A DNA stretch of 64,000 nucleotides from Reclinomonas americana ATCC 50394 (lineage: Eukaryota), in contig PS015022.1 in the NCBI GenBank assembly GCA_048213135.1, forward strand, positions 232,915-296,914. Reading direction: 5' to 3'. The position numbers were made by a program, and so were the translations under genes. The notes below the pieces were generated by a model. It saw only the letters and a program-made list of their open reading frames with translations. It had not been told where the DNA came from and did not search any database. Of this stretch, positions 349 through 61,663 are shown one piece after another; the first letter of the stretch is position 1; each line of letters begins with the position of its first letter.

Positions 349-3300
349 ATGAAACCCGCCAAGAGCTTCCGCCGCAAGAAGCGCGCGACAGTCGGCGACT
401 CCGATGAAAGCGACTCGGACGGTGGCGACACCAAGATGAAGTCGACAACAAATGGCGCCAAAAGCAAGTCGACTTCTTCCTCCTCTTCCTCCTCCACTGT
501 TGCTGCTGCAGTGTCAACAAAGCCCAGTGTGCCTCTGGCCACGCTGAGCTTTGGCGATGAGCTGGCCGAGGTGCGTGTGGACATGTCACCCTTGACTCTC
601 TCTCTTTCTCGTTCTCTTTCTCATGTCTGTCTGTGTGTGTGTGCTTGTTTAGGAGGAAGAGGAGATTGTGTTGAAAAAGTCAACTTCGTCTGCGTCGTTG
701 AATCGACGCGGAAAGAGCGATAAGGCGACGAGTAGTCCAGTGCATTCCTTCAAGGACAAGACCGAGCGCAAGGCGTTGCGTGGACTCTCTCTCTCTCTCT
801 GTGCCTCTCTCTCTTTCCCTCTCTCTCTCTCTCCTTGCCTCCTTGCCTCTCTGCCTCTCCTTGCCTCCCTTCCTCCCTCTCTATCTGTCACTGTGCCACT
901 GCCTCTCTGTTTCTACCTCTCGTTGACTCATTGCCTCCCCCCACCCTCTCTCTCTCTCTCTGCCTCCCTCCCTCCCTCCCTNNNNNNNNNNNNNNNNNNN
1001 NNNNNNNNNNNNNNNNNNNNNNNNNNNNNNNNNNNNNNNNNNNNNNNNNNNNNNNNNNNNNNNNNNNNNNNNNNNNNNNNNNNNNNNNNNNNNNNNNNNN
1101 NNNNNNNNNNNNNNNNNNNNNNNNNNNNNNNNNNNNNNNNNNNNNNNNNNNNNNNNNNNNNNNNNNNNNNNNNNNNNNNNNNNNNNNNNNNNNNNNNNNN
1201 NNNNNNNNNNNNNNNNNNNNNNNNNNNNNNNNNNNNNNNNNNNNNNNNNNNNNNNNNNNNNNNNNNNNNNNNNNNNNNNNNNNNNNNNNNNNNNNNNNNN
1301 NNNNNNNNNNNNNNNNNNNNNNNNNNNNNNNNNNNNNNNNNNNNNNNNNNNNNNNNNNNNNNNNNNNNNNNNNNNNNNNNNNNNNNNNNNNNNNNNNNNN
1401 NNNNNNNNNNNNNNNNNNNNNNNNNNNNNNNNNNNNNNNNNNNNNNNNCCTCTCTCCTCCTCCTCCTCCTCTCTCTCTCTCTCGTCGTCTCCTCTCTCCT
1501 CTTCTTCTCTCTCGTCTCTACTCTCTCCCTCCCTCCCTCCTCTCTCTCTCTCTCTCCTCCCTCCCTCCCTCCCTCCCCCCTCCCCTCCTCTCTCTCTCTC
1601 TCTCTCTCTGCCTCTCTGTCTCTCTGCCTCCCTCTGTATCCCTTTCCCTCTTTGCCTTCTCCGCCTCTCTGCCTCTCATATGGATCAACAGCGCTGGAGC
1701 ACCCAAGCCGGCCATGGCAAGCACTGGCGAGTACACCGCCGACAAGCTGGCGGCACTCAAGCAGAAATCGTTCTCGTTTGGCGCACGAGGTTGCGTCTCT
1801 GGCCTCTGCCCCCTCTCTCCTGCCCCACCTCTTCTCACACATCGCGGGCGATGCAGGTCGATCTGTTGGCGACGACGGTGGCGACGACAGTGGAACGATC
1901 CCCGACGAGGATTTCATTCTGGCGGCGAAGAAGAAGCGTGGCGAAGCTCGTCTGCAGCAGCAGCAGCAGCAGCAGGCGGCGGCAGCGGCTGGTGGTGGTG
2001 CGGGCAATGCAGAGGATTTCATCTCGTTGGATATGCGTGAGGCGAAGAGTCGGCTGGTGCGCGAGGACGACGATCACGATGATATGCTGGGTGCGTGTGT
2101 TTCGGATAGCCGCCTGCTGTGTCTCGGCGGTCTCATGCTCGATGCACAGATGCGTACGGGCAACGAGATACCGCGCGCATCTCCATGTCGGGACCGGCGG
2201 TGGACTCCAAGGCCGACATGGAGCGCGACATTCCCACTCGCGGAGTGCGCGACGATGCCGACGAGATTGGGAAGTGGGAGCAGCAGCAGCTGCGCAAGGC
2301 CAACATTGCGCTCACGGCTGGCAAGTCAGGCAAGCCGCGACTGGCCATCTCGGGTGATGTGGCGTATGATCCAGCGGCGGCGGAGCAAGCAGTGTTTGGT
2401 GAGTTGGAGATTGTAGAAGAGGCGTGCACGCTCTCTCTCCCCTTTCATGCTCTCTTCATGAGAGAGGGAGAGCTAGATGGAGTTCAGGTTCAGCTTTCCT
2501 TGTGTCTCCCCTTCCACGCATCAATCTCAATATCTCTGGCGTCTGTCGCTGTTCTCCTCGCTTTCACTTTTCTGACGCGCACTTTTTCTATCTCTCTCGC
2601 GTGTTCCCAACTCTTGCTGTTGTCCCTTGCCCCTCTTCTTTTCCCCTTTCCATTTCTCACCCATTGTCACACAGACCTGCAGTCCGTGGATCCACTGCAA
2701 TCGTTCCGCGACTTGGAGCGACAACTGGAGAGCTCGCTGGAGATTATTGTGCAGGTGAGTCCGCTCGTGCTAGGGCGTCAATGTCACTGCATTCTCTCGT
2801 TTTCTCTGTGTCTGTCCCTTTCTGTTGTCTCTGTTCCCATTCTCTCCCCCATTCTCTCCGCCCTTCTCTCCCCCATTCTCTCCACCATTCTCTCCCCCAT
2901 TCTCTCCCCCATTCTCTCCCCCATTCTCTCCCCCGGTCTCTCCTCCATTCTCTCCCCTATTCTCTCCCCTTCTCTCTCCCTTCTCTCTCCCTTCTCTCTC
3001 CCTTCTCTCCCCCTTTCTCTCCCCCACTCTCTCCCCATTCTCTCCCTCCCCCATCACCCATCCTCGCCTTTCCCCTTCCCCCTTCCCCCTTCCCCTTGTA
3101 CCCTTTCCCCTTCCCCCTCTCACCCTTCCCCCTTGTCAGTCCCGCTCCGTTGTCAGCGGCCAACTCGACTCGGTCAACAAGGAGATCGAACAAACAATGC
3201 AGCTCAGCGACCTCTCGAGCGAGGGCTTCAAGGAGATCAGTGCCGACTTTGCCTTCTTCCAAGAGACGCGCCAGTTCGTGGAGGACTTGGCCGACTGCTT

Positions 3301-60238: not shown

Positions 60239-61663
60239 TCACTTCTTGACCTTCTTCTTCAGAGGCAGAAGCTTCTTCTTGCCTGCCGCAGCCACAACCT
60301 TGTTCTTGCCAGCCACAGCAACCGCCTTCTTCTTCTCAACACCCGCAGCCACGGCCTTCTTCTTCTCACCACCCGCAGCCACAGCCTTCTTCTTCTCAAC
60401 ACCAGCAGCCACAGCCTTCTTCTTCTCGCCACCCTCAGCCGCAGCCTTCTTCTTGCCGCCCGCGGCGCTTGCTGCCGGCGACTTCACCATCTTCTTCACC
60501 TTCAGTTCGCCACCACCCACAGTCGCCTTGTTCGTCATGACCGACACTAATGAGGGCGCCGCCTTGCCCTTCCTTCCCAATGGTGCGACCTTCTTGACCG
60601 CCTCCACCACCTTGTCCTCTTCATCGGCCGAATCCGAGTCTGTGTCCATGGCCGCAGCATCGGGTGCGCTGTCGACCTCCATGCTGCGCGTGCGCGGCTG
60701 CTTCAATCCCGGCTGCGCCGGCGGCAACCGGCCAAACACCGGCAGCGCAGCGGAGCGATCCAGCTTGACGTACACGGCCTTGATGTTGGTGGCTCCGTGC
60801 GGAATGTACTGCAGAACCGCATCCATCGCCTTCATGACGTTCTCCGTGTTCTCCGCCACGCTCAGCGCATCGCTGCCGACGCGGAACGTCCTGCACATCG
60901 ACAGGATATCAGCTGATGAAATCGACATGTGCCACAGAAGAGACGAAACTGACTCGGTCCGGCTGTCAGCACAAACTGTGTGGCCTGGCGAGCACGCTCC
61001 ACCTGGCGCTTGAAGCTGGCCGCGCCGTGGATGTTGACCGGCACCGGCTGCTTCTTGTTGACAAAGAAGAACTTGCCCAGCAAACGCGGCAACTGTGGCA
61101 CAACTCGTCGATCGGCCATAAACAGGTCGTACCGCGAGCACAGCTCACGTCGCGACTCGTACGTGTTGTAGCGGCGACGCAGCTTGTTCACGCCAATCAC
61201 CTTGGTCACCGGCACATTCTCCTTCTGCAGCCTGTTCTTGATGTCCCGCGACGGATCTGGCACAATCAGGCACACTTCGCAGTCGTCGGGATCGGCGTGC
61301 AGCGCGTGCGGCACGGTGCTGTGAAAAAGGGGGGCGCAGGGGGCGTTGGTGATGTGCATGTGCGCATTCACATCACCAGCCCCTGCACACACACACACAA
61401 AAGACGCAACATGACGTGCGGCTTGGGCGATGGTCGCACGGGGATCTTGTTGAGTGCCAACACCAAGTGCAGTGCGTCGTGCTCCTCAAAGAGGTCGCCA
61501 GAGCTGGCGCCCTCCTTCTTCTCGCGGTGCTCCTTGGAGTGGCGCAGGAGCGCTGTGATGGCCAGTGAGACCTGCATTGGTGAAGAGAGTGAGTGAGTGA
61601 GTGTATGCATGTGGCGGTGGCGGTGTGCGGCGGGCAGCACAGAACTTGCTTGGGATCGAGCAT
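60239..61663 (-). CDS. RSL1D1: Ribosomal L1 domain-containing protein (RSL1D1/Utp30/Cic1-like)
   Basis: QVSLAITALL, VCLIVPDP, KVIGVNKLRRRYNTYESRRELCSRYDLFMADRRV..LPRLLGKFF..KKQPVPV, NIKAVYVK..SAALPVF, Lys/Ala-rich tail. Confidence 0.9.
60318..60455 (-). repeat. Coding 30-bp tandem repeat encoding (AAG[G/V]EKKKAV)n
   Basis: Four to five near-identical 10-aa units in the RSL1D1 tail. Confidence 0.85.

Follow-up and report, generated by a model that had tools for sequence, protein, structure and literature searches.

The DNA analyzed here is a 64-kb window (the whole stretch of contig PS015022.1 from Reclinomonas americana ATCC 50394 that was studied, positions 232,915 to 296,914), which has a G+C content of 57.5% and six runs of N and in which genes rich in introns are tightly packed. 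On the minus strand, a gene for a cytoplasmic dynein heavy chain (35917..55148), recognized by the Pfam domains AAA_8 and Dynein_C, spliced alignments, and a gene-finder span, has about 66 to 68 predicted introns and served as the homology test bed. Other genes called by the gene finder include ankyrin/PH, NDR-type kinase, endonuclease III-like, EF-hand, and NACHT genes, two WD40 genes, and more. The ordinary 5' splice site (donor) of these genes is G/GTNNG(T), mostly G/GTGCGT (the slash marks the splice boundary). About one intron in six begins with GTTGCG, generally following an exon base other than G, and it is this second donor class that is the subject of the present work. The class had been proposed in a sequence-only reading of the window; its abundance is confirmed by the computational predictions described below, with small corrections.

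All 36 GTTGCG sites listed in that reading are present on the strand given for them, and the last exon base is not G in 33 of the 36 (A, 16; T, 10; C, 7; G, 3). The GTGCG donors that had been listed for comparison have G at -1 in 10 of 11 cases, as claimed, and 9 of the 11 (not 571 and 4724) were recovered by our gene finder. The two strands of the window contain 98 copies of GTTGCG, compared with about 72 expected under a 5-mer Markov model, and the hexamer accounts for 1.2% of the 8,129 GT sites. Counts in the dynein region show a mild strand bias for GTTGCG (20 sense, 13 antisense) and a 21-to-1 division for GGTGCG. The hexamer by itself proves nothing, and introns were therefore placed independently.

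For placement by homology, 10 full-length dynein homologues, 35 to 42% identical to the gene, were aligned to region 35501-57000 of the minus strand with our own protein-to-genome spliced aligner, which used BLOSUM62 and affine gaps and had GT..AG as its sole splice requirement. Introns whose placement was the same in 7 or more of the 10 homologue alignments were considered high-agreement introns. There were 42 of these, 59 to 86 nucleotides (nt) in length with a median of 70, and seven (17%) start with GTTGCG, each supported by 8 to 10 homologues. These seven minus-strand introns are 53649..53711 (-1 G, 8/10 homologues), 52751..52818 (-1 C, 9/10), 49438..49501 (-1 A, 9/10), 48710..48783 (-1 A, 10/10), 47782..47859 (-1 C, 10/10), 43192..43271 (-1 G, 10/10), and 41067..41142 (-1 A, 9/10). 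The donors at 48783 and 43271 are new, having been missed in the sequence-only reading, and the other five belong to the 11 dynein sites that it had listed. Homologue support was lower for the rest of those 11, likewise on the minus strand: 53315..53388 (-1 A; 6/10, with varying acceptors), 51527..51596 (-1 T; 4/10, in a poorly conserved tail), 39173..39236 (-1 T; 3/10, ambiguous), 50358..50425 (-1 T; 2/10), 38689..38765 (-1 G; 1/10, weak homology support), and the site at 54908 (0/10). Among the other 35 high-agreement donors, G is found at +5 in 33 and at -1 in 33.

Two features of the dynein gene stand apart from this division. At 39168-39236 (minus strand), two 64-nt placements lie 5 nt apart at both ends, one running from GTTGCG to TAG (3 of 10 homologues) and the other from GTACG at 39231 to AAG (7 of 10); these may be a tandem alternative donor/acceptor pair. 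In addition, the minus-strand donors at 40578 (AAG/GTGAAT) and 42144 (CAG/GTGATG), each placed by 10 of 10 homologues, are without +5 G and are not GTTGCG; both keep -1 G, and their introns are in frame on retention.

Introns were called across the whole window with our own Viterbi gene finder, for which codon usage, intron content, length, and acceptor were learned from the dynein alignment. Pass 1 was donor blind, GT being the sole donor requirement, and pass 2 used a three-class donor score from the dynein set (+5 G, GTTGCG, and other) in which the -1 base was unused. Pass 1 recovered 38 of the 42 high-agreement dynein introns among 221 introns in total. GTTGCG ranked first among its donor hexamers with 25 of 221 (11%), followed by GTGCGT with 19, and was enriched about 9-fold among these donor-blind calls. 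Pass 1 called 21 of the 36 listed sites exactly and put 15 elsewhere; in several of the missed cases, the call went to a weak GT located slightly upstream in the same frame, with the acceptor unchanged (e.g., GTCACA 6 nt before 9067). Pass 2 yielded 239 introns, of which 168 have +5 G, 33 fall in the other class, and 38 (16%) are GTTGCG introns, a count that depends on the dynein-derived class frequencies because GTTGCG was given a prior bonus. It recovered 32 of the 36 listed sites and called six GTTGCG sites beyond the list. Measured in these ways (7/42, 38/239, and 25/221), the share of GTTGCG introns is about one in six, slightly less than the one in five that had been estimated by rough count.

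Among the dynein introns described above, those with donors at 53711, 52818, 49501, 48783, 43271, 41142, 53388, 51596, 50425, and 38765 were called in both passes, and that at 39236 in pass 2 only. Elsewhere on the plus strand, both passes called GTTGCG introns at 1790..1856 (-1 G; frame-breaking on retention, with no alternative in-frame GT within 45 nt), 8592..8659 (-1 T), 11909..11976 (-1 A) and 12033..12114 (-1 T) in the NDR-type kinase gene, 27875..27944 (-1 C), 28351..28437 (-1 A; less certain because retention leaves the frame open), 56353..56429 (-1 T), and 59508..59575 (-1 G; new). On the minus strand, the calls common to both passes were 18251..18306 (-1 T) in the ankyrin-repeat gene, 20394..20462 and 20897..20960 (both -1 A) in one WD40 gene, 21682..21760 (-1 C), and 33763..33823 (-1 A) in the endonuclease III-like gene; the introns at 20960 and 33823 have no alternative in-frame GT. 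Pass 2 alone called plus-strand introns at 9067..9133, 9260..9317, and 23900..23963 (all -1 A), 27544..27590 (-1 A; short at 47 nt and of lower confidence), 27721..27811 (-1 T; new), 28621..28698 (-1 T) and 35497..35571 (-1 A, EF-hand gene), both with the frame open if retained, 56012..56076 (-1 A, WD40 gene), and 56140..56198 (-1 T), together with minus-strand introns at 21523..21583 (-1 C; new), 31676..31773 (-1 A), and 61319..61410 (-1 T). A 254-nt call in a tiny predicted gene (7619..7872, minus strand), made by passes 1 and 2 alone, is of low confidence.

GTTTCG had been suggested as a second shifted form on the basis of two donors, and this suggestion holds: four GTTTCG introns were called in both passes, and all four have A at -1. 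They lie at 11014..11092 and 56519..56595 on the plus strand and, beyond the two already known, at 22083..22156 (no alternative in-frame GT) and 60891..60949 on the minus strand. Protein sequences were also read across several GTTGCG junctions. Junction peptides of the WD40 gene are ...TTIR/LWN... (at 20960, ...SSDTTIR/LWNTS...) and ...LTIR/VWD..., with the 20462 intron at a WD-repeat boundary, and the kinase gene reads ...HFSFQ/DDDFLYMVMDY... at 11909 and has an exon end of ...VPGGDLM at 12033, the two junctions together giving ...SFQ/DDDFLYMVMDYVPGGDLM/. These peptides resemble intact motifs of the WD40 and kinase families.

Misplacement of the sites, or a cut one base later (G/TT...AGN/) that would keep a -1 G in the normal register, was considered as an explanation for the unusual donors. 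Alternative in-frame GTs are present within 45 nt of 31 of the 42 shifted (GTTGCG or GTTTCG) introns and absent for 11, and GTTGCG is also found often within exons, with 20 copies in the sense and 24 in the antisense orientation. Pass 2 failed to recover four listed sites, namely, 775..780 (plus strand; uncalled in both passes, with no AG 45 to 125 nt downstream and then an N run at 982-1448), 16578..16583 (minus strand; pass 1 chose a GT lying 7 nt upstream and left the acceptor unchanged, and pass 2 used GTTCG at 16566), 33088..33093 (minus strand; outside the gene models in both passes), and 54903..54908 (minus strand; the donor chosen in pass 1 was a GT lying 5 nt downstream). A later cut, moreover, is indistinguishable by frame or homology wherever the downstream exon starts with G, as is the case for 19 of the 38 GTTGCG introns. 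However, seven sites are fixed by the alignments of 8 to 10 homologues, the hexamer is strongly enriched in donor-blind calls, and the nearby alternative GTs are mostly without -1 G and +5 G. Retention breaks the reading frame in 37 of the 42 shifted introns. The sole junction informative about the cut, that at 47859, favors cleavage before GT, which yields F (the homologues have Y in nine cases and F in one), whereas a G/TT cut yields V. Since G at +1 is near-universal at intron starts, a TT start would also violate this rule. We therefore regard misplacement or a later cut as very improbable. As a separate observation, the downstream exon begins with G more often after GTTGCG introns (19/38) than after ordinary introns (51/168; p = 0.024), and the spliced junction is often A^G, as though the exon G had crossed the intron.

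In all other respects, the GTTGCG introns resemble their neighbors. The median length is 68.5 nt for GTTGCG introns and 70 nt for ordinary introns, and CAG acceptors are used by 33 of 38 and 150 of 168, respectively (the other GTTGCG acceptors are TAG in two, GAG in two, and AAG in one). A YTNAY branch-like motif is found in 28 of 36 GTTGCG introns and 121 of 150 ordinary introns, with a median distance to the acceptor of 19 nt in both, and CTCAC is its commonest form in both donor classes. Base composition is alike, and introns of the two classes are intermingled in single genes. A side observation concerns the last 40 nt, where the ratio of CTCAC to CTGAC is 15/1 in GTTGCG introns and 33/22 in ordinary introns (p = 0.014 without correction for multiple testing).

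Several special intron types were rejected as the identity of the class. Like the GTTGCG class, U12-type introns form a second donor class that is without a -1 G preference and is mixed among ordinary introns; they differ in that GTTGCG introns carry the CTCAC-type motif of ordinary introns, and among the 239 introns there was neither a [AG]TATCC donor (0/239) nor, within the final 40 nt, a TCCTTRAY branch box (0/239). Pairing between intron ends, as in euglenid nonconventional introns, showed no class difference (p = 0.98). Introner or transposon-derived families were sought by all-against-all blastn of the 239 trimmed introns, which gave 10 matches of 15 to 24 nt and no family. As far as can be judged from sequence, then, GTTGCG introns appear to be real, ordinary U2-type GT-AG introns, with the cut at GT resting on one informative junction and general knowledge.

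The base at -1 distinguishes the two donor classes in every set of introns. It is G in 33 of 35 ordinary and 2 of 7 GTTGCG donors of the high-agreement dynein set (Fisher p = 4.7e-4), in 84 of 113 versus 5 of 25 donors in pass 1 (p = 6e-7), in 115 of 168 versus 5 of 38 in pass 2 (p = 4e-10), and in 71 of 117 versus 2 of 26 in pass 2 outside dynein (p = 5e-7). The association of +3 T and +6 G with the -1 base that the sequence-only reading had anticipated is thus strong at the level of the window (p = 4e-10 in pass 2 and 5e-4 in dynein). In the 38 GTTGCG donors, the -1 base is A in 42%, T in 32%, C in 13%, and G in 13%; before exonic non-donor GTs, it is A in 17%, C in 31%, G in 26%, and T in 27%. 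A at -1 is therefore enriched in GTTGCG donors (16/38 versus an exonic background of 17%; p = 3e-4). Selection for -1 G is lost in these donors, and active avoidance of G is not supported (p = 0.09).

These frequencies also bear on the register in which the sites are read. For the -1 column of GTTGCG donors, the log-likelihood ratio favors the ordinary -2 column (A, 40%) over the ordinary -1 column by +39.8 bits and over the exonic background by +9.0 bits. A bulged-U register has been considered as a means of accommodating the extra T; pairing would then be normal at the start (G+1 with C8, U with A7), one U of +2/+3 would be bulged, and GCGU would continue the helix. Bulge registers at +2/+3 have been experimentally validated in human cells, as described by Tan et al. 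(2016, PMC4856993). A bulged fold is predicted for 2 to 5 of the 38 GTTGCG sites, depending on the U1 end assumed, and the five sites with -1 G would benefit from it. However, a bulge would leave -1 facing U1 C9 and would retain selection for -1 G, which is absent in the data (5/38 versus 115/168), and the 39.8-bit preference for the ordinary -2 column points the same way. The bulge is thus disfavored, and we consider it quite improbable. Of the two, a +1 shifted register appears to be the better fit, and the best overall, to the donor statistics.

The sequence-only reading had described two donor classes built on one core in two registers, and this description is upheld: GTTGCG donors are without -1 G and +5 G and have G at +6 and T at +7. 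The latter is present in 76% of GTTGCG donors, and T is found at +6 in 57% of GTGCG donors. The combination expected of shifted-register sites, that is, neither -1 G nor +5 G and a core one base downstream, is found in the GTTGCG class. The shift is also restricted to particular cores. The 33 donor-blind GTT..G donors without +5 G comprise 25 GTTGCG, 4 GTTTCG, and four others that occur once each. In ordinary donors, the core at +3/+4 is GC in 32 of 113 (28%), and the excess of GTTGCG among the shifted donors is significant (p = 2e-8, donor blind); GTGAG is the second commonest ordinary core, and its shifted counterpart, GTTGAG, was called once. Both shifted forms have C-G-T at +5 to +7. The register shift is seen only where the core places C-G at +5/+6.

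These rules speak to the idea that no pairing is involved, such that short introns of about 70 nt would be defined across the intron from any GT and GTTGCG would be enriched through composition or mutation. The introns are indeed short and tight in length (median, 70 nt), and the predicted pairing of GTTGCG with a standard U1 is negligible. Nonetheless, a seven-base motif with its frequent +7 T, the CG-core rule, and the -1 A enrichment indicate sequence-specific reading, and at ordinary donors of these genes, G is retained at -1 and at +5 with a frequency of about 94%. Definition without donor pairing is consequently highly unlikely in our view.

How U1 small nuclear RNA (snRNA) might pair with the two classes was examined by duplex folding of each donor (-4 to +10) against 11-nt U1 5' ends, with energies given as mean kcal/mol. 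When the U1 5' end was the standard one given by Tan et al. (2016, PMC4856993), energies were -5.65 for ordinary donors, -1.60 for GTTGCG donors, and -2.86 for exonic decoy GTs; the canonical register was adopted by 122 of 168 ordinary and 3 of 38 GTTGCG donors, and the shifted register was adopted by 13 of 38 GTTGCG donors. With a U1 that has G at position 5 (ACGUAC, the Mastigamoeba type), the corresponding energies were -7.5, -5.9, and -4.5, and 23 of 38 GTTGCG donors took the shifted register. The earlier proposal of a second U1/U6 pairing register, or of a variant reader, therefore stands in part: two registers fit the statistics, but GTTGCG pairs worse than decoys with the standard U1, and an ordinary U1 used in another register would therefore be insufficient alone. 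Confinement of the shift to C-G at +5/+6 and the folding energies suggest that the reader of shifted sites pairs with this C; it is likely to be something other than the standard U1 alone, for example, a U1 with an altered sequence, and could also be an additional U1 or a protein. C at +4 is in itself no proof of an altered U1, since Thecamonas and the Mamiellales prefer C at +4 and are described as keeping the standard U1 (10.1101/2022.06.08.495308). Neither a U1 nor a U6 gene was found within the 64-kb window by Rfam search, including a relaxed threshold of E <= 5.

One form of altered reading would be a dedicated second reader, in which a variant U1 (e.g., one altered at the position facing +2) or a protein would read H/GUUGCGU beside the main U1. 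The poor pairing of GTTGCG with the standard U1 favors such a reader, as does the uniformity of the class, which is mostly GTTGCGT. Furthermore, co-evolved U1 recognition sequences have been described in Entamoeba and Mastigamoeba (Roy & Bowser 2022, 10.1101/2022.06.08.495308). In opposition to this, the branch motif, acceptor, length, and composition are common to both classes, which are mixed within genes, and one reader with two registers is simpler; a separate reader is accordingly judged unlikely, albeit a stronger contender than the bulge.

The explanation that we consider best, and moderately probable, is that these are U2-type introns whose donors are paired by the reader at a +1 register, the reader probably being a U1 that pairs with the core C. 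Ordinary donors are G/GTNNG(T), and about one donor in six is instead H/GTTGCG(T), with a few A/GTTTCGT; the (T)GCGT or (T)TCGT core of these sites is displaced by one base away from the cut. Under this proposal, the donor reader, i.e., the U1 5' end and perhaps then the U6 ACAGAGA box, would pair with these sites at a +1 shift, such that the intron G+1 would occupy the slot of exon base -1 and G+6 and T+7 would occupy the slots of +5 and +6. G at -1 would no longer be selected because G+1 would fill its slot. Cleavage would remain before GT, and the reader would probably pair with the C, for example, through a U1 having G opposite intron position +4.

A number of points weigh against this account. 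With the standard U1 end, GTTGCG donors pair worse than decoys in any register (-1.6 versus -2.9 kcal/mol). The -1 G frequency of GTTGCG donors is not significantly under the exonic background (5/38 versus 26%; p = 0.09). The shifted -2 column is unlike the ordinary -3 column (-4.0 bits), there is no signal further upstream, and T at -1 (32%) is unexplained by pairing to U1 position 10. In addition to the reliance of the pass 2 count on a prior bonus, all introns are computational predictions from our own scripts, checked solely by the recovery of 38 of 42 high-agreement introns, and non-GT donors were excluded throughout by design.

Other contents of the window provide context for the lineage. 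The dynein heavy chain protein is 33 to 42% identical to every cytoplasmic dynein compared; protein searches gave a best identity of 58%, over a fragment, and a metagenome scan for dynein genes found 80 loci with identities of at most 42%. A quick tree grouped the window dynein with those of Percolomonas and Stygiella, with SH-aLRT (Shimodaira-Hasegawa-like approximate likelihood ratio test) values of 100 for the group and 92 for the pair with Stygiella. This placement of a single protein sequence hints at a discobid-like or otherwise isolated lineage. A 51-amino-acid WD40 exon gave no match in a protein-collection search. At the end of the window, a long open frame with a NACHT domain (62363-63997, plus strand) continues past the boundary; its best relatives, at 26 to 31% identity, are mostly NACHT-WD40/pentapeptide proteins, from Mortierella-like fungi. 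The predicted protein at 5498-6118 (minus strand) is presumably of the gamma-carbonic-anhydrase/LbH type, judged by eye.

Searches for RNA genes in the 64-kb window found no transfer RNA, no match to Rfam families at gathering scores, and, at E <= 5, no snRNA and 11 sub-threshold microRNA or riboswitch look-alikes only. MicroRNA-precursor look-alikes (E of 0.9 to 1.9) are stacked on about 95 nt at 22947-23042 (minus strand), a stretch that is probably a low-complexity hairpin adjoining the N run at 22591-22947. By far the commonest hexamers of the window belong to (TC)n/(GA)n and (TG)n/(CA)n runs (TCTCTC, 420; TGTGTG, 257; both strands), and many introns have a GTGTGT start or such runs internally.

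The closest known counterparts of the GTTGCG class are human. In shifted (+1) register sites, as described in PMC4856993 and PMC9311317, U1 pairs are all displaced by one position and the cut is at GU, the model oligonucleotide of Tan et al. (2016, PMC4856993) being ACA/GUCAAGUAU. These sites, of the Roca and Krainer type, are likewise without +5 G, have G at +6, and are cut at GU. Differences are found in the core, which is GCGU or TCGU here and AAGU in the human sites as described; in the basis for the register, which here comes from statistics and there from suppressor U1 tests; and in abundance, since the human sites are reported to be rare and the GTTGCG class makes up about 16 to 17% of introns. 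Validated noncanonical registers together account for 1.5% of 201,541 human sites (PMC4856993). Human bulge +2/+3 sites, of which 68 were predicted and 54 retained after curation (Tan et al. 2016, PMC4856993, Table 3), likewise have a GUU start and an extra U before the U1-complementary core; in those sites -1 G stays useful, whereas here it is unselected.

Among other eukaryotes, the ordinary GTGCG core of the window is the same as that described for Mamiellales such as Ostreococcus and its relatives (10.1101/2022.06.08.495308). The same source describes GUGCG-type donors in Mastigamoeba together with a candidate U1 (ACGUAC) whose G pairs with the +4 C; a U1 of this type would pair with GTTGCG acceptably in the shifted register (predicted, -5.9 kcal/mol). 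That account of Entamoeba and Mastigamoeba, in its abstract and sections 15 and 16, mentions no additional donor class with a shifted core. Andalucia is reported to be intron-poor, and the diplonemids studied are reported to have G/GTATG donors or noncanonical ends; neither resembles the window. Literature searches on shifted or bulged registers returned work on human cells, yeast, tunicates, and Entamoeba, and full-text searches of main articles returned no description of GTTGCG or GUUGCG as a splice donor. The GTTGCG class appears to be a new, abundant form of a register shift previously known as rare.

The lineage may have rebuilt its donor recognition, with either a U1 end that pairs with the +4 C or two U1 types and with the core accepted at two spacings, a broader proposition that we hold as possible but doubtful. 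If true, such a rebuilt recognition would amount to a naturally occurring separation of donor recognition from cleavage-site choice, with one intron in six in a register that is rare and exceptional in other eukaryotes. With only one donor matrix, a gene predictor would misplace roughly one in six introns here, as illustrated by the 15 of 36 sites put elsewhere by the donor-blind pass. What sets the exact cleavage position, the GU or the register of the U1 and U6 helices, is a question that has been probed mainly with rare human sites and artificial reporters. About 16% of introns with a core one base out of register would give hundreds to thousands of natural test cases, and the strict C-G core rule and the loss of -1 G would add to their value and provide a prediction for the U1 5' end.

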